Positions 9,083-27,461 of a stretch of 64,000 nt of DNA are shown in pieces. The stretch's first letter is position 1, and every line of letters begins with the position of its first letter. The notes under the pieces were generated by a model, which was not told the origin of the DNA, searched no databases, and worked only from the letters and a program-made list of their open reading frames with translations. The position numbers were made by a program, and so were the translations under genes. Origin of the DNA: a virus; the IMG/VR virus record IMGVR_UViG_3300028394_002011; one strand, 5' to 3'.

Positions 9083-9091
9083 CCAAATGCT

Positions 9092-9120: not shown

Positions 9121-9155
9121 ACTAACATGTTTAACACACATAGAAAGGCAACTTT

Positions 9156-9284: not shown

Positions 9285-9403
9285 AAATTCTTGTAGCACT
9301 AATTTTGGCTAGTACACTAGCCGCATGTTCGACAGTTTCGGGACTTGGTAAAGACATTTCGTCAACCGCCGAATGGACTAAAGATAAGATGGGTGGAAAA
9401 TAA
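9281..9403 (+). CDS. Entericidin EcnA/B-like lipoprotein, 40 aa (not in the ORF track)
   Basis: MKILVALILASTLAAC-STVSGLGKDISSTAEW resembles the entericidin C.TxxGxGxDI pattern; SD AGGAG. Confidence 0.65.
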   Translation: MKILVALILASTLAACSTVSGLGKDISSTAEWTKDKMGGK

Positions 9404-9954
9404 TGAAAAAGATTTTTATTGTATTGCCAATCGTGGCCGCACTTACTGCATGTGGTACTACAGACGTTTATCAAAAACGTGCAGACAACGAGCGTGAGCG
9501 TTCTGAACGCTATGTTGAAAAAGCTATCGACAAAGCACCTAAATGGTTCCGTGAACCTCCTATTAGCAATAGTGCTGTTTTTGAAGCAGGCACTAGTGTT
9601 AGTGCAGATTGGAGTATGGCTGATCACAAAGCCAAGGCAGATGCTTACGGCAAGATTTGTATGGCGGCCGGTGGAACTGCAAGTCAGCAAACTAAAATCT
9701 ATCGTACAGATAGCGAAACAACCAGCACTGAGTTTAGTGAGATGGCTTTGCGTACCAATTGCAAAAGTGTCGACTTGACTGGTGTTGAAATTAAAGAAAT
9801 CAAACACATTTCAGAAGGTCCACGTTTCCGTACATACGTATTGGTAGCGTTGCCAACAGGTGATGCAAACGTATTGCGTAAGGCCAAAGAAGCCGCACGT
9901 CAGCGTGAAATTGCCGCAGGTCGTTCTACAGAGGCATTCAAGGAACTTCAGTGA
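9403..9954 (+). CDS. Lipoprotein (LPP20-like)
   Basis: Lipobox LTAC; APKW...P; RTYVLVALP. Confidence 0.7.
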   Translation: MKKIFIVLPIVAALTACGTTDVYQKRADNERERSERYVEKAIDKAPKWFREPPISNSAVFEAGTSVSADWSMADHKAKADAYGKICMAAGGTASQQTKIYRTDSETTSTEFSEMALRTNCKSVDLTGVEIKEIKHISEGPRFRTYVLVALPTGDANVLRKAKEAARQREIAAGRSTEAFKELQ

Positions 9955-10091
9955 TACTCGAAGTATTCCTATACGGCTTTATTACTGCTTTTGGTTGGTG
10001 GAGTGCCAATCATTACGTAATAGAGCCTTATTTTCCTCCACCAATTGAAAAAGTAGAATCAAAAAATAAAGAAAAACAAAAGGAAAATTAA
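9951..10091 (+). CDS. Small membrane protein, 46 aa, GTG start (not in the ORF track)
   Basis: GTGA overlap upstream, TAATG overlap with clpP, SD AGGA. Confidence 0.55.
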
Positions 10092-10681
10092 TGCCTAATT
10101 TGGTACCAATGGTTATTGAGCAAGAAGCTCGCGGCGAACGTAGTTACGACATTTACAGTCGTCTGCTCAAAGATCGTATTGTAATGTTAGATACGGATGT
10201 GAACGAACATTCGGCAAGTTTACTAGTTGCACAGTTGCTCTTTTTGGAAAGTCAAGGCAACGAAGACATTACCATGTTCATTAATAGCCCTGGTGGAATG
10301 GTTACTGCTGGTATGGCTATTTACGATACCATGCAATTCATTAAGCCGGATGTGTCCACCGTGGTCATGGGCCAAGCCTGTAGTATGGGTAGTCTACTTG
10401 CTACTGCTGGTGCGGCTGGCAAACGTAAAATGCTTCCTAGTGCTAGACACATGATTCACCAGCCCTCGGGTGGTGCAGGCGGGCAAGCAACAGACATGGA
10501 AATCCAAGTTGAAGAGATTCTCAAAATGAAAAAGAATTTGACACAGATCTATGTTAATCATAATAGCAAGGGCAAAACTTACGAACAGTTTAGGCACGAT
10601 ATGGAACGTGATAAATTTATGAGTGCGCAAGAAGCTTTAGATTACGGTTTGATTGACGAGATCATAACAAAACGCCCATAA
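10091..10681 (+). CDS. clpP: ATP-dependent Clp protease proteolytic subunit
   Basis: [25 protein letters not shown] (catalytic Ser), MIHQP, ERD. Confidence 0.97.
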
Positions 10682-10698
10682 AGTGCGTACATAATGGT

Positions 10699-10736
10699 AC
10701 ACCCTAGTATACTATAAATATACTTACTAGGAGTGT
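10699..10736 (+). promoter_or_regulatory. TATAAATA late promoter inside an RBS-occluding hairpin
   Basis: ACAC-CCTAGTA pairs with TACTAGG-A-GTGT (covers SD AGGAG); TATAAATA at 10713-10720 lies in the loop. Confidence 0.7.
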
Positions 10737-10739
10737 GAC

Positions 10740-11465
10740 ATGACTCAGCTACCGTTCAATTGGTCGGAACTAACACGCAGTAATCTGTACTCTATGTTCT
10801 ATTCACTTAACAGTGAAATAGTGGGCAAAGAACTGAGTCCTAGCCAAATCCAAAAACGCATTTCTAGGCATGTCAAACGGCATATACCCGTTAAGATTAA
10901 GAAATGCATATATGCACCCACTACCAAAGGTTTTGTTTTTATGGGTGGTGTGTATTATAGCGATTTGGATCGAAAAAAAGTGCCCGCTATAGAAGTTAAT
11001 TTCAACTATAATCCTGAGGATAAAAAGTTAAGATTAACCAATCATCGTTTCAAACGAATGGCTGTGAGATTCGCTGATGTGGTACTGCATGAAATCGTAC
11101 ATCAGCGCCAATTCCGTAGCCGTAATTTTAAAAATATTCCCGGATACCAAAGCACCGCAGAATATGCCAAAGAACGTAAACAGCAAGAGTACTATGGTGA
11201 CCGAGATGAAATGGGTGCTCATGCGTTTAACTGTGCTTGCGAATTGATTGATCGGTTTGGTTATGACACATTTACTATTGGACAATACTTGGATTCAAAC
11301 CAATGTCGACGCCATAAAAATTCCACATGGAATGACTATTTGAAAGCATTTGACTGGAATCACAATCATCCAATTATACGCAGGATGAGAAATTTGGTTG
11401 TGCGTAATTTGGAAAATGCACACTTCGGCAAGCCATTTAAGACCACAAATCACTTGACATACTGA
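10740..11465 (+). CDS. Hypothetical HExxH protein, paralogue of 2379..3047
   Basis: VLHEIVHQRQ...DEMGAHAF. Confidence 0.75.
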   Translation: MTQLPFNWSELTRSNLYSMFYSLNSEIVGKELSPSQIQKRISRHVKRHIPVKIKKCIYAPTTKGFVFMGGVYYSDLDRKKVPAIEVNFNYNPEDKKLRLTNHRFKRMAVRFADVVLHEIVHQRQFRSRNFKNIPGYQSTAEYAKERKQQEYYGDRDEMGAHAFNCACELIDRFGYDTFTIGQYLDSNQCRRHKNSTWNDYLKAFDWNHNHPIIRRMRNLVVRNLENAHFGKPFKTTNHLTY

Positions 11466-11482
11466 TAATTACTCTGTATAAT
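11454..11482 (+). promoter_or_regulatory. Consensus sigma70-type promoter for the DNA ligase operon
   Basis: TTGACA-17 nt-TATAAT overlapping the upstream stop codon. Confidence 0.9.
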
Positions 11483-11514
11483 ATAAACTTATACAGTTAA
11501 TCATCGGAGTCAAA

Positions 11515-12840
11515 ATGAGCGTTTGTGCCAGTCATATTTGGAATTTAGAAACCCATAATTCACGTTTAGATAAAGAAGGCATCATTGAAGTCATTGCACA
11601 GGAAAAGTGCGATGAATTTTTCGAAGGTTGTCGACTGGCTCTTGATCCCATGATTACTTTTGGACTCAAACAAATTCCGGAGAAAAAAGATGAGGATGGG
11701 CCTGGCTTACCTTGGAGTAGTTTTACTCTCGCTCTTACTGGTTTCGTTACTCGCAACGTCACCGGTAATACAGCACGTGACATGATTCAAGCAATGATGA
11801 AATCAGCTACCCAAAAAGAATGGAATGGCTGGTACCGTCGTATTTTGATCAAAGACTTGCGCTGTGGTGTAAGCGAAAAAACAATTAATAAAGTTGTGGA
11901 GAAGAAATATGCTGATTATGCTATTCCTGTTTTTGGTTGTCAGCTTGCTCACGATAGTGCTAACCATGAAAGCAAAGTCGCAGGGAAAAAACTTATCGAA
12001 GTTAAACTCGATGGCGTTCGTGTTATCACTATTGTACGTAGTGACGGCCGGGTGGATATGTTTAGTCGCAATGGTAAAGAGCTTGCAAACTTTCCTCACA
12101 TAACAGAACAGATCAGCAATGTGGTCAAAACACATGGCACTGACCAAAATATAGATGTTGTGTTGGACGGCGAGATCATGTCAAGCAGTTTCCAAGACTT
12201 GATGAAGCAGGTACATCGTAAGGACAACGTGGAAGCAGGCGATGCTGTTCTTAATTTGTTTGATGTAATACCACTGGCAGATTTTGAAAAAGGATTTTGG
12301 GACAAAGATCAATCCACTCGTAGTGACATGGTATATTACTGGCACAAGACTTATAAACACTTGTTGCCCAATGTCACAGTCGTTGGACATGAGTTAGTTG
12401 ATTTGGATACTGATGATGGACAAGTGCGTTATAAAGAAATTAATGCACAGGCCGTTGCCGGTGGGTACGAAGGTATTATGATTAAAGATCCTGCGGCACC
12501 TTATGAATGTAAACGTAGTGTGGCGTGGCTGAAGTTAAAGCCTTTTATTGAAGTGTCTTTGGAGGTAGTGGATGTCGAAGAAGGAACAGGAAGAAATATT
12601 GGACGCCTTGGAGCAATTGTATGCCAAGGAGTCGACGACGAAAAAACTATTCGAGTCAATGTCGGTAGTGGTTTTAGCGATAGTGATCGCGATAGTTATT
12701 GGGGTTCACGTGATTCCATACTTGGTCAGATCGTGGAAGTGCGAGCAGATGCCGTTACAAGGAACCAAGACGGAACATACAGTTTGCGCTTTCCAAGGTT
12801 CTTACGGTTCAGGGGCTTTGAAGTAGGAGAAAAACTATGA
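11515..12840 (+). CDS. ATP-dependent DNA ligase
   Basis: EVKLDGVR (adenylated Lys), LDGEI, EGIMIK, WLKLKP, VGSGF, SLRFPRF. Confidence 0.95.
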   Translation: MSVCASHIWNLETHNSRLDKEGIIEVIAQEKCDEFFEGCRLALDPMITFGLKQIPEKKDEDGPGLPWSSFTLALTGFVTRNVTGNTARDMIQAMMKSATQKEWNGWYRRILIKDLRCGVSEKTINKVVEKKYADYAIPVFGCQLAHDSANHESKVAGKKLIEVKLDGVRVITIVRSDGRVDMFSRNGKELANFPHITEQISNVVKTHGTDQNIDVVLDGEIMSSSFQDLMKQVHRKDNVEAGDAVLNLFDVIPLADFEKGFWDKDQSTRSDMVYYWHKTYKHLLPNVTVVGHELVDLDTDDGQVRYKEINAQAVAGGYEGIMIKDPAAPYECKRSVAWLKLKPFIEVSLEVVDVEEGTGRNIGRLGAIVCQGVDDEKTIRVNVGSGFSDSDRDSYWGSRDSILGQIVEVRADAVTRNQDGTYSLRFPRFLRFRGFEVGEKL

Positions 12841-13037
12841 CAGAAATCAGTAGAGTATCTGCACAAAATGCAGAAATGTATCGTCAGACAGAAATTAAAA
12901 AATTGGACAAGCGGCACGAAGAACTTCGCATTGAAGAACAACGTGTTAAATTAAACCTCAGAGCAAATGAACAAGCAAGGCTCGACATGAACCGACGGAT
13001 GAACCGTGCAGGACAAAACGTAGATAGGATGGCATAA
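12837..13037 (+). CDS. Small coiled-coil protein
   Basis: Charged helical 66 aa ORF, ATGA and TAATG overlaps. Confidence 0.65.
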   Translation: MTEISRVSAQNAEMYRQTEIKKLDKRHEELRIEEQRVKLNLRANEQARLDMNRRMNRAGQNVDRMA

Positions 13038-13402
13038 TGACAAACCCATTTAGAGATCAAGAAAAATTTATGAAGGCCTGCGATCAAACCGCAGGAGGTG
13101 AATTTGACCAAGAACAATTTAAAATGTATCTTGGCCTTATTGATGAAGAATACAAAGAACTTAGAGTTGCAGTGGACGACAATGATCAATTGGAAACACT
13201 TGACGCATTGATTGATATTTTGGTTGTCACTATCGGTGCTATCCATAGCATGGGGTCGGATGCAGAAGGTGCATGGAAAGAAGTTATGAAGACAAACTTT
13301 GCCAAAGTTGATCACGACACGGGCAAGGTTCGCAAGCGTGAAGATGGAAAAGTGTTAAAACCTGTGGGCTGGGTGCCGCCCAATCTCAAACCATTTATTT
13401 AA
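13037..13402 (+). CDS. MazG-like NTP pyrophosphohydrolase (all-alpha)
   Basis: LIDEEYKEL...ETLDALIDILVV...TNFAK...REDGKVLKP. Confidence 0.85.
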   Translation: MTNPFRDQEKFMKACDQTAGGEFDQEQFKMYLGLIDEEYKELRVAVDDNDQLETLDALIDILVVTIGAIHSMGSDAEGAWKEVMKTNFAKVDHDTGKVRKREDGKVLKPVGWVPPNLKPFI

Positions 13403-13414
13403 AGGAGAAAAAAA

Positions 13415-14110
13415 ATGTTTGGTGCAAATTATACAAATGGCGGAATTTTAAATTATAGATCCGCCGCTGAAATCAATTCAGCCATGGGCCGTGTGTACGG
13501 ACATATGAGTCTTGCTGTTATTGTTTCTATGATGGTCAGCTACTTTGTTGGCACTAGTCCAGAGTTGCTGGAATTCTTTTTTACAGGTGTACTAAAGTGG
13601 ATTGTGATCTTTGCTCCGCTGGCGGCAATCTTTGGTATTAGCTTTGTGTTAGGTAACAATCCTAGCAAAGGTGTAGCGCAGTTATGCTTACATGGTTTTG
13701 CGGCATTAATGGGTCTGAGCTTTGCCACAATTTTTGCTGTGTTTACCATGGGATCAATTGTGTCGGCCTTTATGGGTGCGGCAATCTTGTTTGGTGTAAT
13801 GAGTGGCTATGGCTATTTTACCAAACGGAGTCTAGATAGTCTTGGTAAGTTTATGTTTGTTGGTTTAATTGCAATTGTTATTGCCAGCATCGTCAATATC
13901 TTTATTGGTAGTACTGTGATGCAGATGGTGATTTCTGCACTAGCCATTATTATCTTTTTAGGACTTACTGCTTATGATACACAACAAATTCGAGAAGAGC
14001 TAAGTGTAGAGACTAGTGACAGCGCAGAAATTCGTGGAGCACTAACTCTGTACATGGACTTTATCAACTTGTTTATCAACTTGTTACAGTTGTTTGGAGA
14101 TAGAAAATGA
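13415..14110 (+). CDS. yccA: BAX inhibitor-1/YccA family membrane protein
   Basis: About 7 TM helices; GLTAYDTQ and ALTLYMDFINLF motifs. Confidence 0.9.
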   Translation: MFGANYTNGGILNYRSAAEINSAMGRVYGHMSLAVIVSMMVSYFVGTSPELLEFFFTGVLKWIVIFAPLAAIFGISFVLGNNPSKGVAQLCLHGFAALMGLSFATIFAVFTMGSIVSAFMGAAILFGVMSGYGYFTKRSLDSLGKFMFVGLIAIVIASIVNIFIGSTVMQMVISALAIIIFLGLTAYDTQQIREELSVETSDSAEIRGALTLYMDFINLFINLLQLFGDRK

Positions 14111-14544
14111 TTCGTGAATACATCAATATTGTAGAAGGTCTGCATATTACTGACGACTGGTTCAAGGACGGTGGATTCAAAGCCTACAAACGTCCTGCCA
14201 AAGAACGTTATGAGATTGCAGATGAACCTGGCACTATTGATACACTGGAAGGACCAGTCAAGTATTCTAAAGGTTTTTATATTATGACTGGGCCCAAAGG
14301 AGAACAATATCCTATCAGTCCAGAACGGTTTGACGATCTTAAAGACGATTTGGGAGATGGAGTTTGTACACCAAAAAAGATCGTCAAATGGGCCAAGTTG
14401 GCGGATCGTTCCGGATCAGTTGACACCAGCTGGGGAGAGAAGCTACACTATAATCCAGGCGAAGATGTTATCGTTCGCCATGGTGAAAATGATTACGGTG
14501 TAGTCAAAAAAGACATCTTTGCACAAACATACGAGAAAATATAA
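14107..14544 (+). CDS. PGDYG-like protein
   Basis: Two repeats: TLEG......GPKGEQYP and TSWG....PGEDVIV...DY.VVK.DIF..TY. Confidence 0.7.
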   Translation: MIREYINIVEGLHITDDWFKDGGFKAYKRPAKERYEIADEPGTIDTLEGPVKYSKGFYIMTGPKGEQYPISPERFDDLKDDLGDGVCTPKKIVKWAKLADRSGSVDTSWGEKLHYNPGEDVIVRHGENDYGVVKKDIFAQTYEKI

Positions 14545-15383
14545 TGGCACAACATAGCACATATTGGAGTTGTACTCCATTTGCAGACTGGATTCGAGGC
14601 ACTAAGAAGTTGAGTGCGGGCACAGCCGAAGAATGGAACGAGTGGACCACTCGGGCTCAAATGAAACACAACTTCCGTTATTGGCTAGCAGAAGAAGCAC
14701 TTGGACACGTTCAAGATTTTGTCACATGGCCTGTAAGGAAAATTTATGATGCAAAGTATTATATCAATAATCGATTCGTTACTCGAACCCACTCACTCAC
14801 TGCTCACCCTCGTGATATTACCCCTGGTAATTGGTGCGATGTTGGCAATCGTTTTCTCCCATGTCTTTTTAACGAACTTGTGGATTTTGTTGAAGTAGAG
14901 TCTGCATGGAGTCACATCGCTTGGGGAAGCAAAGAAGATCGTGCCAAATACAATCCTCCTTTCTGGGCCAGTGGTTGGTGGCGTTGGAGAACTTGGCGTT
15001 GCCCACAAGCAGGACTTGATCATCTCGATTGGGCAATGACTTTGACTAACACTGACTGGTGTGAACCAGATCATCCTGACTACGGCAAACCTACCGGACA
15101 AGCAATTCGTGCCAAAGAAATCAAAGAGCTGTACACTTGGTGGACAGTGACTTATCGCAACCGACCCGATCCATATGAAGCCAGCGGGTGGACTGCGGCC
15201 TGCGAAGCAAGTCGTATCGCCAATGGTGGCAAGTTAAATTGGGGACAAGAAAAAGATCCTACACTTAAAAAGGCCAGCGATAAAGCACACAAGCTACTGC
15301 AAAAGATTGAAGCATCTTACGAAAAAGAAGATACCGAAATGATGATTCGTCTTATCAAAGCTCGCGATAGCCTATGGACATAA
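14544..15383 (+). CDS. Trp-rich hypothetical phage protein
   Basis: 279 aa ORF, TAATG overlap. Confidence 0.8.
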   Translation: MAQHSTYWSCTPFADWIRGTKKLSAGTAEEWNEWTTRAQMKHNFRYWLAEEALGHVQDFVTWPVRKIYDAKYYINNRFVTRTHSLTAHPRDITPGNWCDVGNRFLPCLFNELVDFVEVESAWSHIAWGSKEDRAKYNPPFWASGWWRWRTWRCPQAGLDHLDWAMTLTNTDWCEPDHPDYGKPTGQAIRAKEIKELYTWWTVTYRNRPDPYEASGWTAACEASRIANGGKLNWGQEKDPTLKKASDKAHKLLQKIEASYEKEDTEMMIRLIKARDSLWT

Positions 15384-16736
15384 ATGAAAAACGAAAAACA
15401 AAAATTAACCGATGTTGTTATTAAATTAAAAAATGTAAGTGAAAGTTTTTGTCTAGCTAAATGGTATCAATTGACGTTATACCTTCAGACTGGATTTAAT
15501 CATAGTTGTCACCATCCAAGCCCGCATAAAGTTTCTATAGAAGAACTTAATCAAAATTACAAAGCACTGCATAATACTAAGTTTAAAAAAGAACAAATGC
15601 AAAAGATGCTAGACGGTGAACGTCCTAGCGAGTGCGATTATTGCTGGCGAGCAGAAGACGCAGGTCATATTAGTGATCGATTTTATAAAAGTGCCGGGCA
15701 TTGGGCTATGCCTTACATAGACGATGTTGTTAAAAATAAAACTGCTGACATTGAGCCAAGGTATGTTGAAATTAGTTTTAGTAACGTGTGCAATTTTAAG
15801 TGTGCATATTGCAGTCCAGATTTAAGTAGTCAGTGGCATGAAGAAATTTCAAAACATGGAGCATACCCTACTAGTCAAAATTACAACGGATTTGATTGGT
15901 TTAAACAAGTAGGCAAAATGCCTATTAAACATAGTGATCCAAATCCTTATGTAGATGCATTTTGGACCTGGTGGCCTGAATTATACAAAAATTTACATAC
16001 ATTAAGATTAACCGGCGGCGAACCATTGTTGAGCAAAGACGTGTGGCGCATGTTAGACGCTATCGAAGCTGAACCAAAGAAGGATCTAGTATTTGCTATT
16101 AATTCTAATCTAGGTGTTGGTAGAGATATGATTGACAGAATGATTACTAAAATTAATAACATTAGTAAAAACATTCAAGAAGTACAAATTTTTACTAGCG
16201 GCGAAGCTATGGGTGAGCAAGGCGAGTATATAAGATACGGGCTTGATTATAAAGAGTGGTGTCAAAATTTAGAATATGTATTAGACAATACTAATAATAT
16301 TGTAGCAGTAATGACTACTGTGAATCTAACTAGCATTACCACTTATTGTAATTTTATAAGGTACTTGTTAGATCTACGTGGTCATTATAATAAAACTGCT
16401 ACATTCAATAAAGTTCAATTTATGACTAATACATTGCGTTATCCTGAATTTTTATCATTGACTTTATTGGATCAAACTAGTAAAATAAAATTTGCACAAG
16501 ATGTTGAACAGTTAATAGAAGAACGTGGTAAGTTCGATGGATTAGCCACATTATCATTTAGTGAGATAGATCAACTACGCCGAATGGTTGACTATATGAA
16601 TGAAACTAATCCTAACGAAGAAATGCTACGCAAAGACTTTGCATCGTTTATTACAGAGTATGATAGTAGACGCAATACTGATTTTAATCAAACATTTCCC
16701 GAACTTACTGAATTTTATAAACTATGTCAGAATTAA
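15384..16736 (+). CDS. Radical SAM protein with N-terminal twitch/SPASM-like domain (RS1)
   Basis: FCLAKW...SCHH...ECDYCW; core CNFKCAYC; TGGEP. Confidence 0.92.
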   Translation: MKNEKQKLTDVVIKLKNVSESFCLAKWYQLTLYLQTGFNHSCHHPSPHKVSIEELNQNYKALHNTKFKKEQMQKMLDGERPSECDYCWRAEDAGHISDRFYKSAGHWAMPYIDDVVKNKTADIEPRYVEISFSNVCNFKCAYCSPDLSSQWHEEISKHGAYPTSQNYNGFDWFKQVGKMPIKHSDPNPYVDAFWTWWPELYKNLHTLRLTGGEPLLSKDVWRMLDAIEAEPKKDLVFAINSNLGVGRDMIDRMITKINNISKNIQEVQIFTSGEAMGEQGEYIRYGLDYKEWCQNLEYVLDNTNNIVAVMTTVNLTSITTYCNFIRYLLDLRGHYNKTATFNKVQFMTNTLRYPEFLSLTLLDQTSKIKFAQDVEQLIEERGKFDGLATLSFSEIDQLRRMVDYMNETNPNEEMLRKDFASFITEYDSRRNTDFNQTFPELTEFYKLCQN

Positions 16737-18043
16737 AAAAAACTATCAAAATTATAAATGACATTAGTCCAAGTTTTTGTGCGGCTAAATGGTATAATGC
16801 TACAATATGGTTAGGCAACGGCAGGACTGCAAGTTGCCACTTACCACCAGCACATACTATTCCTTTGAAAGAAATAGCAGTCAATCCTAGTGCGTTGCAT
16901 AATACTGAATTTAAAAAACAACGTAGAGAAGAAATGCTTGCAGGAGTGAGATGTGAAGAATGTGCATATTGCTGGACTGTGGAAGATGCTAACGCTCCTG
17001 ATGTGTTTAGCGATAGAGCTTATAAAAGTAATATCTATTCAGAAACCGATATTAATAATTTAGCAGGATTTACAGGAAATATAAATCCTAAGACTTTAGA
17101 AATTAGTTTTGATAACTTGTGCAATTTAAGTTGCAGTTATTGTAATGCAGAATTTAGTACTACTTGGGCAAGTGATATAAAAGAAAATGGGCCGTATGCT
17201 AATTTAAAAACTAGCGGTGGTGGCACATTCCAAAATGCAGGCGAACACGCAATGCCCTATGGAATTAAAAATGAAGATAATCCTTACATTAAAGCATTCT
17301 TTATTTGGTTTAATTCAGGTTTAAAAAACGAACTTCAAGAGTTACGTGTTACCGGCGGCGAACCCACACGAAGTCCGTGGTTTTGGAAATTGCTAGAAGA
17401 GTGCAAAGATACTACATTTGATTTTGCTGTAAATTCCAATTTGATCATGGATCAAAATAAAATGAAACAGCTTATAGAAGCTAGTAAGAAGTTTCAAAAA
17501 TTTGATTTGTATACCAGCGGAGAAGGATACGGTGCTCACGGTGAATTTATACGTGATGGTCTAGACTACACACTATGGCGCAATAATTTAATTCAGTTTG
17601 CTACCGAAGGACATTATAAAATGATCCATGTTATGCTAACTATCAGCGCATTAAGTATATGGACTATTACAGAATTCATGGATGATGTTTTAGATTTGAG
17701 AAAGAAATTCAATGGGCATCAGTTTCATATGAGTGTTAATATATTGAGATTTCCAAGTTTTCAAAATTTAAATGTGTTGCCTGTAGAATTAAAAATTGCA
17801 CAAGCTGACAAAATAGAAACTTGGTTGTCACAGCCCCATAACATTTCAGGACATGAACGCAATCAAATTGAAAGATTAATTGCATATTTACGTAACGTAG
17901 AACGTAGCCAGGAAGATCAAGATAGTTTAGAAAATAAGATAAATGACTTTGTACAGTTTACACGGCAGTATGCTATGAGAAAAAACAAAGACATAGCATC
18001 TAGTTTTCCGGCAGAATTTATTAATTGGATCAATTCAATATGA
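16724..18043 (+). CDS. Radical SAM protein with N-terminal twitch-like domain (RS2)
   Basis: FCAAKW...SCHL...ECAYCW; core CNLSCSYC; TGGEP. Confidence 0.92.
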   Translation: MSELKKTIKIINDISPSFCAAKWYNATIWLGNGRTASCHLPPAHTIPLKEIAVNPSALHNTEFKKQRREEMLAGVRCEECAYCWTVEDANAPDVFSDRAYKSNIYSETDINNLAGFTGNINPKTLEISFDNLCNLSCSYCNAEFSTTWASDIKENGPYANLKTSGGGTFQNAGEHAMPYGIKNEDNPYIKAFFIWFNSGLKNELQELRVTGGEPTRSPWFWKLLEECKDTTFDFAVNSNLIMDQNKMKQLIEASKKFQKFDLYTSGEGYGAHGEFIRDGLDYTLWRNNLIQFATEGHYKMIHVMLTISALSIWTITEFMDDVLDLRKKFNGHQFHMSVNILRFPSFQNLNVLPVELKIAQADKIETWLSQPHNISGHERNQIERLIAYLRNVERSQEDQDSLENKINDFVQFTRQYAMRKNKDIASSFPAEFINWINSI

Positions 18044-18837
18044 AATTTATTTTTTTAAAATCAGGAGATTATTTAGAGTTTACTCCAAGACCTACTAAGT
18101 TTGTTGGAGAGTGGTTTGATTTTTTGTTTAAAAATGGAATTGCTCACCAATTTACTAATCAAGAACAATCGTGGGCGACAACTAGCAGTGAGCAATATAT
18201 GACTGAGATCAATCAGCATATTGATATTGTAAATCATTTTTTAAGAATTTCTTTACCCGTTGTTACTGAATTTAGAAAGAATTCTAATATAAATCAAAAA
18301 TGGTTAAATGGTCTGCACAAATCGTGGGCCTATGCAACTCATCATTATAAAAATGAAATTTTTGTCATACCAAAAAATGTAAAAGAATCTTGGCAGGAGA
18401 TCAATAATCTAATACATAAAATTGAATTAAATTATATCCAAGTGTTTAAAAATTCTGTTGTTACAGAAATTCCTGAACTGGCAAACCTTAAAGTTACAAA
18501 AGAAGATTGCGAATTTGGACAATATGACTTAGTATTAAATTATGGCAATTTGGGACGCCATCAATTTAACCAATGGCAAGTTGGGAAGGATTGCATTGAT
18601 GATGAGACTAATAATTATCAAGTAGTAGGTACAAATTTTAGTTATTTCCAAGGAGTAGATTGCTACCCTCAATTGGAAGCACCGCCCGAATATGTAAAGT
18701 GGTGTAAAAAACAAAACTTAGAAATATTAGGGCCGTGGATTCCGTTTGGAAAATTTAAAATATCAGATTCGTGGACTGTCAAAGAAATAATGCACAGAAA
18801 TCTTAAAGACGACTTGGCAGTTGGATTTGAACGATGA
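18040..18837 (+). CDS. Hypothetical protein inside the radical SAM island (start probably 18040)
   Basis: ATGA overlaps at both ends; no recognised motif. Confidence 0.7.
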   Translation: MKFIFLKSGDYLEFTPRPTKFVGEWFDFLFKNGIAHQFTNQEQSWATTSSEQYMTEINQHIDIVNHFLRISLPVVTEFRKNSNINQKWLNGLHKSWAYATHHYKNEIFVIPKNVKESWQEINNLIHKIELNYIQVFKNSVVTEIPELANLKVTKEDCEFGQYDLVLNYGNLGRHQFNQWQVGKDCIDDETNNYQVVGTNFSYFQGVDCYPQLEAPPEYVKWCKKQNLEILGPWIPFGKFKISDSWTVKEIMHRNLKDDLAVGFER

Positions 18838-20045
18838 GTAAATTTATTTGCGATTTTCCGTGGATACATTTGAGCACATTTCCGCAAGGCAATTGTACTA
18901 TTTGCTGTGTGGCCGAACATACGGGGAAACTCAACGGTCATAGTTGGAACAAAACACCTGATGACAAAACACAAACTTTAACTGTTGCCAATAGTTCTAT
19001 ATCAGAAATTATTAACTGCGATAATTATAAATCTATTAGACTAGACATGCTAGAGGGCCGTATACCTCCTGCTTGCGCAGGATGCCATAAAGTAGAACAA
19101 GCAGGCGGCAAAAGTAAAAGACAAAGCGAAACCAACAGAAACTTAAATCATGCGGAACTTACTAGTGCCGATGGATCGATTGTTCCAGATTTACGTCATA
19201 TTGAATTACGTCTTGGAAATCATTGTAATTTAAAATGTCGAAGTTGTAATGCAGACTCTAGCACTAGTTGGATCCAAGATTATTACAAATTAAAAGATAC
19301 TGTTAAACTAGCGTCAGGCTATCATTGGATTAAAAATAATCCTGACTTTACATTTGACTGGGTCGATGACGAATCTTTTTACGATAAACTAATTGAAGTT
19401 GCTCCTAATTTAGAACAAATTCATATTAGTGGCGGTGAGCCGTTCCTTGTACCTACACATTTTAAATTACTTGAAAGGTTGGTAAAAGAAGGCCGTACCG
19501 ATATTGCTATACATTACCATACTAATTTAAATTATAAGTTTGAAAAAGTTAAGCCTGCATTAGACTTGTTAACTAATTTTAGAGAAGTTCATATTAGTTT
19601 TAGTATCGACGACGTTGCAGAACGTAATACATACATTAGAAGTTTAAGCGACTGGGATTTAATGATCAAAAATCTCAAATTGATTACTGAAAATTATAAA
19701 TTTATTTTCCGTATAACACAAACTATCAGTGTTTATAATTTTTTATATGTTGAAGAGCTTGAACAATATTTAAAAAATGAAGGCATTGATATTCGCATTC
19801 ATCTAAATCACGTACATAGTCCAGACTATTTGATGGCAAATGTATTGCCAAAAGAAGTAAGGCAACAAAAGATCAATTCAATTTACGGATTGATCAATGA
19901 TAAACTTTGGCAGGATTTATACGGACATTATTTTAGTCCGGAGTCAAACGGACTGTGGGACGATTTCAAACATTTTACATCAAACGTTGATTTGATTAGA
20001 AACGAATCACTAAATACTCATTTTAATAAACTAATAACATTATGA
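18834..20045 (+). CDS. Radical SAM protein with N-terminal twitch domain (RS3)
   Basis: ICDFPW...ICC...ACAGC; core CNLKCRSC; SGGEP. Confidence 0.92.
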   Translation: MSKFICDFPWIHLSTFPQGNCTICCVAEHTGKLNGHSWNKTPDDKTQTLTVANSSISEIINCDNYKSIRLDMLEGRIPPACAGCHKVEQAGGKSKRQSETNRNLNHAELTSADGSIVPDLRHIELRLGNHCNLKCRSCNADSSTSWIQDYYKLKDTVKLASGYHWIKNNPDFTFDWVDDESFYDKLIEVAPNLEQIHISGGEPFLVPTHFKLLERLVKEGRTDIAIHYHTNLNYKFEKVKPALDLLTNFREVHISFSIDDVAERNTYIRSLSDWDLMIKNLKLITENYKFIFRITQTISVYNFLYVEELEQYLKNEGIDIRIHLNHVHSPDYLMANVLPKEVRQQKINSIYGLINDKLWQDLYGHYFSPESNGLWDDFKHFTSNVDLIRNESLNTHFNKLITL

Positions 20046-21247
20046 TTCCTGAAAAATTCTGTGTGGTGCCGTGGATACATTTAAATCCAGAACCTAGCGG
20101 CGCTGTTAAACCATGCTGTGCATATTTTGATAATTCAAAACCTGCATTTCAAAATATAAAAGATTTTTCTTTAGAGGAAATTTGGAATAGCGATGATCAA
20201 AAAAATCTGAGAAAACAATTTCTAAACAATCAAACACCTCAAGGTTGTGCTACTTGCACAAAAAAAGAAGGTAGCGGCAACCACAGTTTTAGGATGGCCA
20301 TGAATGAACGATTTGCCAAACACATCGTTCCTGCTATTGAAAATACAGAACCAGACGGTCACTATGAAAATTTCAATTTGGTCTATTGGGATTTTAGATT
20401 CAGCAATGTTTGTAACTTTAAATGCAGAATGTGTGGTCCTACCTGTAGCAGTTCGTGGTATGAAGAGTCGGACAGATCTCGTCCTAAAATTATGGACAAA
20501 GACTTTTACGGACGTGACTTGATGCCGTATGTGGACCAGTCTATTAATGTTGTGGAAGAAGTTTATTTTGCAGGTGGTGAGCCGTTAATGATGCCAGAAC
20601 ACTATCAAGTATTAGATAAACTAATGGAGCACAACCGTTATGATGTGTTTTTAAGATACAACACAAATTTAAGTACTATCAAATACAAATCATATGATTT
20701 GATCAATGTTTGGAAAAAGTTTAAAAAAGTTCAACTGTTTGTGAGTCTTGACGGTTATGGTGAAAACGCAGAATACAGTAGAAGCGGTACTGACTGGCCG
20801 CGTGTTGAAGATAATCTTAAAAAATTAATCGAGCATGATATTTCTCTAGTTATATCATGTACTGTTAATATATTTAATGTGTTTCATTTACCTGATTTTA
20901 TAGATAGATTAATATCACTCAATGTCCCGCTGAAAAAGTTACTGATCAGTAATTTGATATTTCCTACACATTATCAAGTTGCAATACTTAGCGATGAATT
21001 AAAAATTAAATTAAAAGAAAAGTATACTAATCATTTAGCTATGTTGAGCGATTCAGATAGAAATATTATTGTTTCAAAATATGAACAAATCTTTTATTAT
21101 TTAGAAATGCCCGTTACCAACGATGATCAAAAATCATTTGTTAAATCAACGCTAAGATTAGATGCAAGCAGGAACGAAAACATCACAGATGTAATTCCAG
21201 AATACCAAGAATGGTTTTTTGAATTAAAAACAAAATATAATTTATAA
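20042..21247 (+). CDS. Radical SAM protein with N-terminal twitch domain (RS4)
   Basis: FCVVPW...PCC...GCATC; core CNFKCRMC; AGGEP. Confidence 0.92.
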   Translation: MIPEKFCVVPWIHLNPEPSGAVKPCCAYFDNSKPAFQNIKDFSLEEIWNSDDQKNLRKQFLNNQTPQGCATCTKKEGSGNHSFRMAMNERFAKHIVPAIENTEPDGHYENFNLVYWDFRFSNVCNFKCRMCGPTCSSSWYEESDRSRPKIMDKDFYGRDLMPYVDQSINVVEEVYFAGGEPLMMPEHYQVLDKLMEHNRYDVFLRYNTNLSTIKYKSYDLINVWKKFKKVQLFVSLDGYGENAEYSRSGTDWPRVEDNLKKLIEHDISLVISCTVNIFNVFHLPDFIDRLISLNVPLKKLLISNLIFPTHYQVAILSDELKIKLKEKYTNHLAMLSDSDRNIIVSKYEQIFYYLEMPVTNDDQKSFVKSTLRLDASRNENITDVIPEYQEWFFELKTKYNL

Positions 21248-21248
21248 T

Positions 21249-22406
21249 ATGAAAAATATTTGGTTACCCAACAATGTGTCGATGGTACACTGCGAGCTTT
21301 CTACATTTTGTAACGCCGCTTGCCCTAACTGTCCTAGATTTTTTACTGGTACTCATGTTGTGAGATCAGGTGTTACACTAGCTCAAGTAACAATAGATCA
21401 GTTTAAAAACTGGTTTGAAGAAGAATTTATTAAAAATGTAACCCAGTGGAAATTCTGCGGAACGCATGGAGATCCTATGATGGCCAAGGATGTAGTTAAG
21501 ATAATCCGTTACATCTTTGATATTAATCCGCAAACTAATATTACTGTTAATACCAACGGGGGTATACGTAATGAACAAGACTGGCAGACTCTAGGAGAAA
21601 TTTCTTCTAAACATAAATTAAAAATTGTGTTTTCAGTTGATGGATTAGAAGATACCAATCATTTATATCGTAGAAATGTAGAGTGGACTAAGCTAATGGT
21701 AAATGTACAGTCCTACATAAACTCAGGTGGATATGCTCATTGGGAGTTTTTAACTTTTAGACACAACGAACATCAGATTACAGAAGCAAAAGAATTAAGC
21801 AGACAATTAGGATTTGCAGAATTTCTTCAAAAAAGAGCTGTTGGTTTTGAACATGACGGAAATTTAACTGATATGCCTGTATTTAACGCAGATGGAGAAT
21901 ACGATTATTCGATTTTACCTCCTTTAAATTCGGAATATAGAATGTCTAAGATTAGTTTAGAAAAAATCGTCGACAGGCGCCGAGATAATCTTACAAACTA
22001 CTACAGAGAAAATATCGATAAGTTAAAAGATAACTTTGAAGAAACTGTTAGTAATTTTGAAGATACTATCGAATCTGACAATGTTACAATCAATTGCAAT
22101 TCTAAAAAAGATAAAAACAGTGAAATTTATATTAATGTTAACGGCATAGTATTCCCATGTTGTTTTATGGGGAACTCTATAGATGCATTTGATTCGCAAC
22201 CACATGCATTACAACTAAAAACTCGATTAAGAGAATACGGTGTTGATAACTTTGATTTAAATAAAAAATCAATAACTAAAATTTTAAATGAAAATCATTT
22301 AAATCAATTTGCATCTAATGATTGGGAAACTCCTAAGTGTCTTGAATTTTGCAAGAAAACTTGTGGAAATTCACATATAATAAACCGTATATATGATATT
22401 AAATAA
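21249..22406 (+). CDS. Radical SAM protein with C-terminal twitch/SPASM domain (RS5)
   Basis: Core CNAACPNC; GTHGDP; TNG; C-terminal C...G.VFPCC...CLEFCKKTC. Confidence 0.9.
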   Translation: MKNIWLPNNVSMVHCELSTFCNAACPNCPRFFTGTHVVRSGVTLAQVTIDQFKNWFEEEFIKNVTQWKFCGTHGDPMMAKDVVKIIRYIFDINPQTNITVNTNGGIRNEQDWQTLGEISSKHKLKIVFSVDGLEDTNHLYRRNVEWTKLMVNVQSYINSGGYAHWEFLTFRHNEHQITEAKELSRQLGFAEFLQKRAVGFEHDGNLTDMPVFNADGEYDYSILPPLNSEYRMSKISLEKIVDRRRDNLTNYYRENIDKLKDNFEETVSNFEDTIESDNVTINCNSKKDKNSEIYINVNGIVFPCCFMGNSIDAFDSQPHALQLKTRLREYGVDNFDLNKKSITKILNENHLNQFASNDWETPKCLEFCKKTCGNSHIINRIYDIK

Positions 22407-22998
22407 TTTTAAATTACTTGACGATACATGTATTAATAAAATATATAGTAATTGTATTTGGACATTTGATATTATCACCAATATTGATGTATCTGAGCAG
22501 TTGTTCATTTCTGAGTATCAACCTCTGAATAGCTTACTTCCAATTGGTGGTCGAAAAAACTATATAAAAAAATCGTCTGATATTCTCGACACGTTTATTA
22601 ACACGTTAAATGATTTAGTATTTTTAAAAACACAAGAGCTAGTATTCTCGGAAAAAATGAAAGGAACATTCCAATCAAGATGGCCGATTGAAGAAGAGCA
22701 ATTCAACCATAATATGTTTGCAATGACGCATATATTTAAAGATCCGCCAAACTTTAGTATGGGTAAGCATTTAGATAATCAAAGAGTTGTAGGAAACGCT
22801 ATTGTTAATCTTATAGATAATTCCAGTACTACTGAATTTTTTGACTATAGAGATCCAGATAAAGTTATTTTTTCAACTATTGGAGCCAGAAATACTGGAG
22901 TATTGTTTTTAAATACACCTGCCGCTTTACACCACATCAAAAATAAAAATGCAGATCGTTACATTGCTAATTCTTCTATAATGATAAAAAAATGGTAA
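22393..22998 (+). CDS. Putative 2OG-Fe(II) oxygenase-like protein
   Basis: HLD (HxD)...LHH...R in a beta-rich C-terminal half. Confidence 0.55.
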   Translation: MILNNFKLLDDTCINKIYSNCIWTFDIITNIDVSEQLFISEYQPLNSLLPIGGRKNYIKKSSDILDTFINTLNDLVFLKTQELVFSEKMKGTFQSRWPIEEEQFNHNMFAMTHIFKDPPNFSMGKHLDNQRVVGNAIVNLIDNSSTTEFFDYRDPDKVIFSTIGARNTGVLFLNTPAALHHIKNKNADRYIANSSIMIKKW

Positions 22999-24179
22999 CT
23001 AAATCTAAAACTTTTTGCCTGCATCCCTTTACCCATTTGGAAATAGCAAACTCTGGAGAAATTGCACCGTGTTGTAGTTTTGATCGGTACTACAAGTTAG
23101 ACAACGGCAATACGGCAACAATAGCAGATTCTTTTGACAGCATTATTAATAGTCAACATTCATTAGAGTTAAAAAAAGCATTACTCAACGATGAGCAACA
23201 TCCAGGGTGCCGAAGATGTTGGGAAGATGAAGCGGCTGGACGAGCCAGTCAACGACAACGATATACTCGACGTTACATGGAATATCAGGATCAATTTACT
23301 AATTATGATCAATTTAAATTATTATCTTTTGATTTAAAATTAGGAAACACTTGTAATCAGATGTGTGTGATATGTCATCCTGGTAACAGCTCTATGCTGG
23401 TAAACGAATATAAGGTATTATTTCCGCATAGACGAGCCAATTACATTGGATTAGATTGGTATAGATTTTCTGAAAATATGGAAAAGATTGAAAAAGAATT
23501 AGACACAATTTTGCATATTGATTTTTTTGGTGGCGAACCTTGGCTAATTAAGCAACAATGGGAAATTCTTCAAAAGTTAATTAAGATAGGTCGCAGTCGC
23601 GAAGTAACATTAAATTATGCGACTAACGGAAGTATTTTTAGCGAAGAATATTTTGATATTTTTTCTAAATTCAAAAAAGTTAGTATATTGTTTAGTGCTG
23701 ACGGAATTGAAGATACTTTTGAATATAATAGATATCCCGGTAAATGGGATGTTTTTAAAAATAATTTGCAAAAAAGTTTAAGCTATGCAAATCCAAATCT
23801 ATCAATTAATATTAGTTATACTGTGAGTATGTATAGTATCTTCAATGTTATTGAAAGTTTGGAATATTATTCTTCAATATCGAATGAAACTAACAATTTA
23901 AAAGTTTGGTTTAATCTAGTCAATGATGAAGAATATGCAATAAAAAATTTACCTAACGAATTTAAAGAACTGTTGATAAAAAAAATAACACAACATATAA
24001 ATGTTGACTGGCCATTGTTAGATAAAAATAGTTTACAGTCTCTTATTTACGAATTACAAAAATCAAACGACGAATCTAAATGGAAACGATTTAAAAAAAT
24101 TACCAGTGATCGCGACCATCTTCGATCCCAGTCAATATCAACTATAATACCAGAACTATCATGGATCAGCACACATTAG
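22992..24179 (+). CDS. Radical SAM protein with N-terminal twitch domain (RS6)
   Basis: FCLHPF...PCC...GCRRCW; core CNQMCVIC; FGGEP; TNG. Confidence 0.92.
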   Translation: MVTKSKTFCLHPFTHLEIANSGEIAPCCSFDRYYKLDNGNTATIADSFDSIINSQHSLELKKALLNDEQHPGCRRCWEDEAAGRASQRQRYTRRYMEYQDQFTNYDQFKLLSFDLKLGNTCNQMCVICHPGNSSMLVNEYKVLFPHRRANYIGLDWYRFSENMEKIEKELDTILHIDFFGGEPWLIKQQWEILQKLIKIGRSREVTLNYATNGSIFSEEYFDIFSKFKKVSILFSADGIEDTFEYNRYPGKWDVFKNNLQKSLSYANPNLSINISYTVSMYSIFNVIESLEYYSSISNETNNLKVWFNLVNDEEYAIKNLPNEFKELLIKKITQHINVDWPLLDKNSLQSLIYELQKSNDESKWKRFKKITSDRDHLRSQSISTIIPELSWISTH

Positions 24180-24877
24180 AAAAATTAACTGATTTTGCAA
24201 GCCCTTTGTCTGACAATTGCGATTTGGCATTCACTGTGGAAATGTTAAAATTATACAAAACAAAATCTATTTTGGAATTGGGGGCTGGTAACGGAGATTG
24301 GATACGATTTATAGCTAATGCGTTGCAAGACAATGATATTTCGTTTATTGGTTACGAAGACTTTAGATGGAAGATGAATAACTCTTGGGAAACAACCATA
24401 TTGGATTTAAACAAGTTAATACATGATTCGCTATCTAGCATGAAACTTAATAATCAAGTTTTTTTAAAAAATGCTGATATTACAAAAATTGATGCGACAA
24501 CAGAATATAGCGGCCAATTGTTTGATGTAGTAAGACTGGATTGTTTGGCAACCGATGAATCTGATATTGTAAAGGTAATTAGCAATATCTTGCCATACAC
24601 TCATGATAATACAATTTTTTTAGTAGACGATATCGCTGTCAATTATTGCCCTAATAGATTTTTGGCAATGATGCACCTTTCACAAGCAAATATGCTAAAA
24701 CCGTTATGGTTTGGATCTAAGGAAGGTGCATGGGTCAAACCCAATTTTAATTTTGAAAATTTCAAATCAGCAATGGAAAACAAACTTGATACGCATTGGT
24801 ATACTGGCGATTTTTATCAATACAAATTACTAGGACAGCAGTATACTTTTATAACTACACGAATGAATCATAGATAA
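24161..24877 (+). CDS. Class I SAM-dependent methyltransferase-like protein
   Basis: ILELGAGNG (motif I), FDVVRLD, FLVDD. Confidence 0.75.
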   Translation: MDQHTLEKLTDFASPLSDNCDLAFTVEMLKLYKTKSILELGAGNGDWIRFIANALQDNDISFIGYEDFRWKMNNSWETTILDLNKLIHDSLSSMKLNNQVFLKNADITKIDATTEYSGQLFDVVRLDCLATDESDIVKVISNILPYTHDNTIFLVDDIAVNYCPNRFLAMMHLSQANMLKPLWFGSKEGAWVKPNFNFENFKSAMENKLDTHWYTGDFYQYKLLGQQYTFITTRMNHR

Positions 24878-24880: not shown

Positions 24881-24898
24881 TGTTGTAAATTTACAACA
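24881..24898. repeat. Perfect 18-bp palindrome at the right edge of the radical SAM island
   Basis: TGTTGTAAA-TTTACAACA. Confidence 0.85.
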
Positions 24899-24909: not shown

Positions 24910-24938
24910 TTGACATACTGTCGTCTCGATGCTATAAT
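24910..24938 (+). promoter_or_regulatory. Consensus sigma70-type promoter
   Basis: TTGACA-17 nt-TATAAT; SD AGGAG follows. Confidence 0.9.
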
Positions 24939-26219: not shown

Positions 26220-27431
26220 ATGACAACACAACAATTAACCGTACGAAACGATAGATTATGGGCAGATAGTAACCTAGATCTGTCTGCTGATCATGCTTAC
26301 AAAATTGATAACACTCCAGTATTATCAGCTACCGAGCTTGGCCTTACTGTTACTAAAAGTAATTTAAGAGAAATTGGTACTCTAAAAAGTTTAGAAGTAT
26401 CGGGCACTACAACTCTAGCAGAATTTGCACATTTTAATAGTACAAACGGACGATTAGGTCTAGGAACCTTAGACGCTAATGCCAGCATTAGTATTTTAGA
26501 TAACGATGTTGAAATCGCCATTGGCAGTCCGGAGCCTGGCATTGCACACTTTGGAACATATTCAACTAGTGATGTTGCTATTATTTCTGATAATATTCCA
26601 CGTATACTTGTAAAAAGCAACGGCGAAGTAATTATCGGTAGCGAAGCAGGAAAAACTGGTGTGTTGCGAGTGCATGGATCCTTGCATGTTGACAATTTTG
26701 TTGCCGATACTCGACTTGAACGCAATAGTCCTTTAGAATTTAAAGCCAACAGAGATGGCAGTATTTACGGATTAGGTTTAATTTGGTCTGCAGATCGTAT
26801 TACTCGTCAGTTGATCATGCGTGATGGTCCTGATAGATTATGGGCTAGCACATCCATAGACTTGGATGAGCATCAAACATATTATATAAATGGCAGATCT
26901 GTTCTAAGTGCAACTAGTTTAGGTTCTAGTGTTGTTAACAGTAACTTGGTTACTGTGGGTCCATTACAATCACTAACGGTTACCGGCGACGTAGAAATAC
27001 AAGGCAACTTAACAGCTGGTCAAAGTAATGTTACTTTAAAATCATTGTTTATCAACAACGGTGTTGAAAATGTATTGTTTGACGAAACAGGCACAAATAG
27101 CAATAAAAATTACAGAATTGCCGTTAACCAAGAAGATGTATTCTACGGTAGCAATGATGAAATCATTATTGGTAATCCAAACTTTGCTCGCAGGGCTGTT
27201 AAAGTATTTGGTCCAATATCCACTACTTCAGATTTAACTGTTGACGGTGCTGTTAGTTTAAACAATAAGAAATTTACCAAAGGTAACAATGCACCAACTG
27301 AAGGACAATGTACCAAAGGTGACATTCATTGGAATGAAAATCCAGTCGAAAGCGGTTACATTGGTTGGGTGTGTATTTCGTCTGGTACGCCTGGACAATG
27401 GTTACCGTTTGGTGCTATTGCTCGTCAATAA
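26220..27431 (+). CDS. Probable virion structural or fibre-like protein
   Basis: Repeated S(N)L(R/V)x(I/V)G.L.SL.V.G motifs; C-terminal KGDI.WN..P...GY.GWVC...GTPG.W.PFG; late promoter. Confidence 0.7.
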   Translation: MTTQQLTVRNDRLWADSNLDLSADHAYKIDNTPVLSATELGLTVTKSNLREIGTLKSLEVSGTTTLAEFAHFNSTNGRLGLGTLDANASISILDNDVEIAIGSPEPGIAHFGTYSTSDVAIISDNIPRILVKSNGEVIIGSEAGKTGVLRVHGSLHVDNFVADTRLERNSPLEFKANRDGSIYGLGLIWSADRITRQLIMRDGPDRLWASTSIDLDEHQTYYINGRSVLSATSLGSSVVNSNLVTVGPLQSLTVTGDVEIQGNLTAGQSNVTLKSLFINNGVENVLFDETGTNSNKNYRIAVNQEDVFYGSNDEIIIGNPNFARRAVKVFGPISTTSDLTVDGAVSLNNKKFTKGNNAPTEGQCTKGDIHWNENPVESGYIGWVCISSGTPGQWLPFGAIARQ

Positions 27432-27433: not shown

Positions 27434-27461
27434 TTGACCTTGTTGTATAAAAGTATATAAT
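27434..27461 (+). promoter_or_regulatory. Sigma70-type promoter for queD
   Basis: TTGACC-16 nt-TATAAT. Confidence 0.75.

Follow-up and report, generated by a model that had tools for sequence, protein, structure and literature searches.

Phages that carry genes for radical S-adenosylmethionine (radical SAM) enzymes in numbers have been described before. The Campylobacter phages CP220 and CPt10 hold 11-12 such genes, and a block of five was recognised as a module that had been taken up en masse and could be interchanged (Timms et al., 2010, PMC2853527); a T4-like marine environmental viral genome holds 12 alongside genes for Fe-S assembly (Nishimura et al., 2017, PMC5332604). Here I describe a nine-gene island, six of whose genes encode radical SAM enzymes, at positions 15384-24877 on the + strand of a 64,000-nt stretch of viral DNA (IMG/VR virus record IMGVR_UViG_3300028394_002011; hereafter the window). 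The island belongs to a class of radical SAM arrays that is widespread in phages, and it is mosaic, put together from modules that are also met separately elsewhere. To that class it adds this mosaic nature, a cargo slot with exact breakpoints, an alternative cassette, an operon context of sigma-70 type and a fold assignment for its seventh gene product, U7. A first-pass annotation, made from the letters alone, had called the island the window's strongest candidate for an undescribed system. That label does not hold for the enzyme family, which is already catalogued (NF033640 in NCBIfam, phrog_14086 in PHROG) and extremely common in uncultured phages; what does hold is that Pfam, NCBIfam, PHROG and PDB sequence searches map the island to no characterised pathway.

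The likeness to CP220 and CPt10 lies in a phage radical SAM block that is swapped between close relatives and in one related enzyme family. A profile of the RS5-like family (RS5 being the product of the sixth island gene), built from RS5 relatives in viral loci, finds CPT_0080/0083/0084 of CP220 at 100-106 bits. However, the CP220 enzymes have the usual domain order rather than the N-terminal-twitch (N-twitch) order described below, and their neighbours are an amidinotransferase and two GT-A-type transferases. With the marine genome the island shares a heavy radical SAM load in an uncultured aquatic phage, a comparison by gene count only.

In the open-reading-frame listing nine co-directional genes fill the island in the order RS1-RS2-U3-RS3-RS4-RS5-U7-RS6-MT9 (Table 1). 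Their eight junctions measure, in that order, -13, -19 (-4 if U3 starts at ATG 18040), -4, -4, +1, -14, -7 and -19 nt, and thus span a 19-nt overlap to a 1-nt gap. RS1 abuts the stop codon of the gene for a 279-aa Trp-rich protein (CATAA directly followed by ATG). The island's GC content of 0.326 lies below that of the 10 kb upstream (0.406) and of the downstream side (0.386), and GC at third codon positions is 0.24-0.30 in the island genes and 0.36-0.38 in four of the five flank genes checked, the exception being a downstream gene for a 403-aa protein (0.25). The palindrome that closes the island, TGTTGTAAATTTACAACA, has no T-run after it and is therefore non-canonical as an intrinsic terminator; a role in termination is unproven. 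The first-pass annotation had this layout right: the coordinates of the nine-gene island are exact, its AT-richness, its TAA-ATG fusion to the upstream operon and the 18-bp palindrome at its end are all there, and no precursor-peptide ORF lies inside, since overlapping or abutting genes leave no intergenic room.

Five of the six radical SAM enzymes (RS1, RS2, RS3, RS4 and RS6) are members of NCBIfam NF033640 (N_Twi_rSAM), scoring 276-387 bits against a cut-off of 170, and they also match phrog_14086, weakly. All five place a Cys-rich auxiliary (twitch) domain before the CxxxCxxC core; in RS3, RS4 and RS6, Pfam SPASM matches fall at residues 6-85 and Radical_SAM matches at about 117-300. It is in these scores and this twitch-first layout that the likeness to the family consists, a family named by catalogue only; RS5 (52 bits, below the cut-off), U3, U7 and MT9 are non-members. 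The island had been said to encode six twitch enzymes, all with CxxxCxxC. The motif is indeed kept in all six proteins, and an N-terminal twitch domain in five, but RS5 has its radical SAM core first and a SPASM-type domain at the C-terminus. Invariant in the five N-twitch paralogues (RS4 numbering) are C7, C26, C69 and C72, the SAM-cluster motif C124xxxC128xxC131 and the SAM-binding motif GGEP (G178-G179-E180-P181). The paralogues are 23-29% identical to one another, orthologues 40-86%. The annotation's remark that none of the enzymes looks like QueE, NrdG or MoaA agrees with their scores, which lie far below the model cut-offs (QueE, NrdG, MoaA and viperin models: best scores 15-38 bits, cut-offs 131-325).

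The auxiliary domain has a solved homologue in BtrN, the 2-deoxy-scyllo-inosamine dehydrogenase that is the prototype twitch radical SAM enzyme. Residues 7-82 of an RS4-subfamily profile align with BtrN 169-247 (E 1.5e-4), and C7, C25/26, C69 and C72 of the profile stand opposite the Cys of that BtrN segment at about 169, 187, 232 and 235 (alignment numbering), four residues that I take to be auxiliary-cluster ligands. This Cys-for-Cys alignment supports, and the sequences suggest, one fully ligated auxiliary [4Fe-4S] cluster in the N-twitch enzymes. The differences are as clear as the likeness: the twitch domain is C-terminal in BtrN and N-terminal here, the similarity is limited to the twitch region of about 75 residues, the N-twitch enzymes are extended at the C-terminus by an additional helical region of about 100 residues, and no pathway context is shared.

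In a tree of 81 proteins, made for the radical SAM subfamilies, RS1 and RS2 fall in clades of 14 rows each (support 96 and 99) that are sisters at 98, and each clade holds one member per locus. The RS3 clade has six rows (support 97), the RS4 clade is broad, and RS6 is a long branch, weakly placed (support 86), for which a peptide-pattern scan of IMG/VR found no close relative. RS1-like, RS2-like and then RS4-like genes lead most of 69 distinct viral loci. Such supported per-locus clades, together with the regular gene order, indicate that the paralogues arose long ago and have each been kept on their own since, an argument for distinct roles.

The enzymes are abundant. RS4 has 5,233 homologues at E<=1e-5 in a collection of 5.8 billion proteins, and at least 588 IMG/VR stretches carry them; the closest metagenomic homologues are 90% identical for RS4, 80% for U3 and 81% for U7. 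Among 82 viral loci the median is five radical SAM genes per locus, with up to nine; these loci were selected by similarity to RS4, and the figures describe that part of the NF033640 family. A megablast search with the island and 20 kb of flank gave no match among phage records. Cultured carriers of NF033640 members above the cut-off are Vibrio phage K566 (202 and 193 bits), whose KVP40-like relatives are also carriers, and Ralstonia phage RsoM2USA (316 bits). The loci concerned are VPHK566_0303-0306 in K566, gp349 in RsoM2USA and, for the RS5 type, CPT_0080-0087 in CP220. In a genome scan seeded with an RS4-subfamily alignment, cellular carriers are found among Bacteroidota, Bdellovibrionota, Verrucomicrobiota, a Synechococcus and Beijerinckia, usually with one to four copies in mixed contexts. 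One of the cellular loci (L104, about 2100-19000 of a Saprospiraceae MAG contig) has two N-twitch enzymes, six PhyH-family dioxygenases, a WelO5-like 2-oxoglutarate (2OG) halogenase, a methyltransferase, a GT1 and an ABC ATPase, and looks like an unusual oxidative and halogenating tailoring locus. PhyH was rejected as a general partner of the arrays, six of the seven PhyH neighbours tallied coming from this single locus.

How the island is put together can be read from its relatives. Twenty IMG/VR loci carry a five-gene module, RS1-RS2-RS4-RS3-U3, and lack RS5, U7, RS6 and MT9. RS1 orthologues in these loci are 70-86% identical in 18 of the 20 and 66% in a 19th; the corresponding identities are 66-75% for RS2, 75-77% for RS3, about 52% for RS4 and about 38% for U3. 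In one of them, L166, the module sits in the window's own slot, after homologues of the DNA ligase (79%), the MazG-type protein (87%), the Bax-inhibitor protein (89%) and the 279-aa protein (59%), whereas the flanks of the other module loci are unrelated. RS5 (89-93%) and U7 (78%) form an isolated pair in three contigs (L143-L145), and distant U7-like oxygenases occur inside other N-twitch arrays (L062, L160, L161). The window lacks the families of unknown function that most often stand next to arrays in other phages (clusters 1-8), so these are not required partners. Conserved partners across relatives exist, in the five-gene module and in the recurring RS1-RS2-RS4 order. Of the multi-step tailoring pathway proposed in the first-pass annotation, the intact phage-borne radical SAM block stands; a single obligate nine-step unit does not.

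The slot itself is variable. The nearest relative is G001, a 356-kb IMG/VR genome rated 96% complete. Its flanks are 96% and 87% identical in nucleotides to those of the window, and the 9.3 kb between them are unrelated DNA: a different nine-gene cassette with an N-twitch enzyme (37% identical to RS4), a 682-aa radical SAM protein, an RS5-like enzyme, a sugar-nucleotide-type cytidylyltransferase/cupin fusion gene and genes of unknown function. The 682-aa protein has a long N-terminal extension, and its gene adjoins the fusion gene. The left breakpoint coincides exactly with the stop codon of the 279-aa gene, which the cassette overlaps or abuts at both junctions examined (window and G001). The right one lies inside the spacer of the promoter at 24910: both genomes retain the -35 and -10 hexamers of this promoter but diverge in the spacer and in all upstream sequence. 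An AT content above that of the surroundings is likewise seen in the G001 cassette and in the RS5-U7 pair of L143. G001 has a second radical SAM island, with at least three N-twitch genes and one RS5-like gene. A truncated ORF at 2-877 on the - strand of the window is 84.6% identical to the first gene of that island (L016 3434-4405), so the window's phage very probably has another radical SAM island just upstream of the window.

The three island genes that do not encode radical SAM enzymes differ in how well they can be named. For U7 an AlphaFold (AF2) model of mean pLDDT 87 finds in a Foldseek search of the PDB PolD (top match, E 1.6e-7) and PasI, then P. putida P4H and PHD2, with E values of 1e-7 to 1e-5, probability 1.00, TM scores of 0.54-0.62 and 10-14% sequence identity; the fold also matches chlorovirus vCPH. 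H126-x-D128, H180 and R189 are invariant in an alignment of 16 homologues and make up the HxD...H...R metal/2OG motif that U7 shares with PolD, PasI, P. putida P4H and PHD2. No Pfam family matches U7 at E<=0.01; in its Atlas neighbour clusters 22-43% of members have 2OG-FeII_Oxy_3. The gene had been called oxygenase-like, and the confident model with its invariant motif makes it more precisely a 2OG/Fe(II) oxygenase of prolyl-hydroxylase type. The modelled fold is one that cannot separate small-molecule from protein substrates. MT9 had been annotated as a methyltransferase; motif I (ELGAGNG) is present, but both Pfam matches fall just under their gathering scores (Methyltransf_31 26.6 bits against 27, Methyltransf_24 24.6 against 26.3). 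It has no PDB match by sequence and, in the peptide-pattern scan, no close IMG/VR relative.

U3 belongs to a family of 201 representatives at 50% clustering. Its likelier start is ATG 18040; TTG 18025 is also open. H93, N122, H126, E129 and G172, a set that includes two His and a Glu, are invariant across the family. The AF2 model is confident (pLDDT 92), but a Foldseek search of the PDB gave no match, and nothing informative came from Pfam, PHROGs, NCBIfam, PDB sequences or the Atlas, nor did a profile of 46 U3 relatives find a relative in Pfam or PDB. The structural neighbours are ten uncharacterised Caudovirales proteins and nothing else. A cyclophilin-like barrel with an inserted helical bundle was considered and rejected, the VIA-align Z of about 8 being at background level. 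In the five-gene-module loci (L017-L026, L166-L183) the gene after U3 encodes a protein of 281-287 aa that starts MKIYVNGDSFT and weakly matches GDSL/SGNH hydrolases; absent from the window, it is a possible partner with esterase or acyltransferase activity.

The expression context is that of a long operon. The three perfect sigma-70-type sites in 19.6 kb exceed chance expectation about 400-fold by a rough calculation, and such consensus matches suggest that these operons of the jumbo phage are transcribed with the sigma-70 of the host. Inside the island the best + strand matches reach 10/12 and promoter-like sites are in total no more numerous than in shuffled sequence, in keeping with the earlier failure to see an internal sigma70 consensus promoter. 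Genes are tightly packed from 11515 to 24877, with no comparable promoter and no convincing terminator before 24881; the island is thus most simply the predicted tail of a transcript that starts from the promoter at 11454 and is headed by the DNA ligase gene. This operon is probably expressed early, a proposal that derives from consensus matches and not from timing evidence. The T4 late-promoter motif TATAAATA occurs once in the 64 kb (10713), against about seven expected from shuffles, and so gives no evidence for late transcription of the island.

Table 1. Positions of the island genes and associated features (window coordinates unless a contig is named)
Feature	Position	Strand	Description
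Sigma-70-type promoter, perfect	9092-9120	+	12/12; intergenic, just upstream of a gene
Sigma-70-type promoter, perfect (TTGACA-17-TATAAT)	11454-11482	+	12/12; intergenic, upstream of DNA ligase gene
279-aa Trp-rich protein	14544-15383	+	Upstream neighbour; stop codon is left edge of variable slot
RS1	15384-16736	+	NF033640, 339 bits; CxxxCxxC at residue 136; twitch Cys 23/42/84/87
RS2	16724-18043	+	NF033640, 276 bits; CxxxCxxC at residue 133; sister subfamily of RS1
U3	18040-18837 (or from 18025)	+	Unannotated family; only annotated relatives are phage proteins
RS3	18834-20045	+	NF033640, 329 bits; N-twitch radical SAM enzyme
RS4	20042-21247	+	NF033640, 387 bits; commonest subfamily
RS5	21249-22406	+	Usual order: Radical_SAM 17-142, C-terminal SPASM-type 290-372 (Pfam SPASM 27.2 bits)
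U7	22393-22998	+	2OG/Fe(II) oxygenase, prolyl-4-hydroxylase type
RS6	22992-24179	+	NF033640, 300 bits; divergent N-twitch lineage
MT9	24161-24877	+	Probable class I SAM-dependent methyltransferase
18-bp perfect palindrome	24881-24898		Closes island; AT-rich
Sigma-70-type promoter, perfect	24910-24938	+	12/12 with TG extension; next operon; right slot boundary
Sigma-70-type promoter	27434-27461	+	11/12; intergenic, just upstream of a gene
Cytidylyltransferase-like/mannose-6-phosphate-isomerase-type cupin fusion	L015 5129-5899	-	G001 cassette

What might such a cassette do? I tentatively favour, at a little short of even confidence, a stepwise radical tailoring of a sugar-type cytoplasmic substrate (a nucleotide-sugar, a glycan precursor or a nucleoside). 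I read the island as cargo: a cassette of radical SAM tailoring enzymes, mosaic in make-up, lodged in the variable slot with which the operon ends on its 3' side. Each enzyme would turn SAM into a 5'-deoxyadenosyl radical that abstracts H from an unactivated C-H of a shared substrate, which must be available in the cytoplasm since all the products appear cytoplasmic. The auxiliary cluster would accept an electron, giving an oxidation of the BtrN or anSME kind or a related epimerisation, dehydration or C-C chemistry; by analogy, a BtrN-like cluster in the N-twitch enzymes suggests an electron sink acting on a sugar-like substrate. The RS1-RS2-RS4(-RS3) core would build a scaffold that RS5 and U7 (hydroxylation) and RS6 and MT9 (methylation) would decorate, and the variable product would serve phage-host interaction.

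The leads to a sugar are several. In other phages the operon partners of the arrays include a carbamoyltransferase (29 loci), a nucleotide-sugar epimerase (11 loci), GT7 and GT2 glycosyltransferases, UDP-glucose dehydrogenase and APS kinases. The G001 cassette has its cytidylyltransferase/cupin fusion in the same slot, and the RS5 relatives of CP220 adjoin two nucleotide-diphospho-sugar transferases. BtrN, the closest solved relative of the twitch domain, acts on an aminocyclitol, and of the Fe(II)/2OG enzymes PolD and PasI that resemble U7, PasI was solved with octanosyl acid phosphate, a sugar-acid ligand. Several points weigh against a sugar-type substrate. The island has neither a glycosyltransferase nor a sugar-activating gene; the only GT1 of G001 and its two epimerases lie more than 85 kb from its radical SAM islands, and it has no GT2. 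Predicted sigma-70 transcription together with DNA ligase and MazG would fit early functions better than late decoration of the virion. U7 matches protein prolyl hydroxylases as well as PolD and PasI (TM 0.55-0.62), and cellular genomic contexts are heterogeneous. The association with sugars stems from other loci and may not transfer to this one. Finally, a full-text literature search found no paper characterising any NF033640 member, so every chemical step is inferred.

Possible, though more doubtful, is that the N-twitch arrays amount to biosynthetic machinery of an uncharacterised type, with undescribed radical C-H chemistry and with swappable accessory modules that diversify the product. 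The RS1-RS2-RS4 core would act on a sugar- or nucleoside-type scaffold, and RS5 with the oxygenase and RS6 with the methyltransferase would vary what comes out. If true, the arrays would give the phage an exchangeable molecular identity, much as O-antigen loci do, for host interaction or counter-defence.

SPASM and twitch radical SAM enzymes are best known as peptide and protein maturases, and the same enzymes, with the prolyl-hydroxylase-like U7, might instead modify a full-length phage or host protein in the manner of anSME, with no dedicated precursor, by cross-links, epimerisation, formylglycine-type oxidation, hydroxylation or methylation. I consider this unlikely. Maturases of proteins and of ribosomally synthesised, post-translationally modified peptides (RiPPs) such as anSME, PapB, SkfB and PqqE share the superfamily and the auxiliary-cluster domain, the U7 fold is that of PHD2, P. 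putida P4H and vCPH, and the weak secondary NCBIfam matches of the island enzymes are mostly to maturases (PapB, YhhB, XyeB, SCIFF). These matches, however, reach 15-56 bits against cut-offs of 265-720, the N-twitch architecture is permuted, the island has no precursor peptide, and none of the nine proteins has a Pfam match to PqqD or another RiPP recognition element (RRE), though divergent RREs can escape Pfam. A substrate might be sought in the 279-aa protein, which has 21 Trp in 279 residues, six Cys and no Pfam or PHROG match, and which the radical SAM cassette directly follows in the window, in G001 (97.5% identity) and in L166 (59%); it could be a substrate or a mere recombination-boundary marker. 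In other phages, however, it has no link to the arrays, and the five-gene module moves among unrelated flanks. Giant fibre genes lie 6 kb downstream of the island, but the 64-kb window holds no collagen-like GXY runs and no small protein with Cys-His-x-Ser or RGRR.

An improbable alternative is chemistry on nucleic acids or nucleotides, either hypermodification of DNA or RNA or a nucleotide analogue for takeover or counter-defence, with a logic like that of viperin or QueE. The cassette shares its predicted early operon with the genes for DNA ligase and a MazG-type pyrophosphohydrolase, queD is found 2.7 kb downstream of the island, the wholesale replacement of the cassette between close relatives fits arms-race functions, and PasI with its bound octanosyl acid phosphate points to nucleoside-type substrates weakly at most. 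What tells against it is the lack of the expected partners: no glycosylase, kinase, transglycosylase or hydroxymethylase domain was found in the island, the transglycosylase, kinase and glycosylase-like transferase of DpdA-type and thymidine hypermodification clusters were found neither in the nine proteins nor in the immediate flanks, and G001 has no TGT/DpdA homologue. With the viperin, QueE and NrdG models, whose cut-offs are 131-260 bits, the scores reach 16-34 bits. That there is no single pathway, and that the genes are independent auxiliary metabolic enzymes (for example for oxygen-independent oxidations that serve the host's metabolism or supply cofactors) collected in a slot permissive to cargo, would fit the mosaic of separately occurring modules, the host-metabolism role that Timms et al. 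(PMC2853527) proposed for the Campylobacter-phage module and the tie that Nishimura et al. (PMC5332604) drew between viral radical SAM loads and Fe-S metabolism, but it is very unlikely, as the order RS1-RS2-RS4(-RS3) and its co-inheritance in dozens of divergent phages, with tight translational coupling, point to joint action at least within modules, and no known cofactor-pathway model is matched.

The rest of the window is phage-like in gene content, with DNA ligase, MazG-type, Bax-inhibitor, PGDYG, QueD and UvdE genes and open frames of 3,290, 1,551 and 1,405 aa. The 403-aa protein downstream of the island (26220-27431) is rich in Ser, Gly, Thr and Asn, matches no family, is 86.6% identical in G001 and follows an early-type promoter region; such a composition points to a structural protein resembling a fibre or spike. 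A tRNA-Pro (anticodon GGG) is predicted at 970-1065, its span of 96 nt being unusually long.

Exchangeable modules, a defined slot and differing cassettes in close relatives are a signature of diversifying selection. Thousands of uncultured phages from aquatic, soil and gut habitats devote 5-10 kb to four to nine oxygen-sensitive enzymes, and the cultured carriers (Vibrio phage K566 and its KVP40-like relatives, Ralstonia phage RsoM2USA and, for the RS5 type, CP220) make their function testable. The identity of the substrate would also explain the Fe-S supply genes in large phages, and it would probably bring to light both new radical SAM chemistry and a new level at which phage and host interact.

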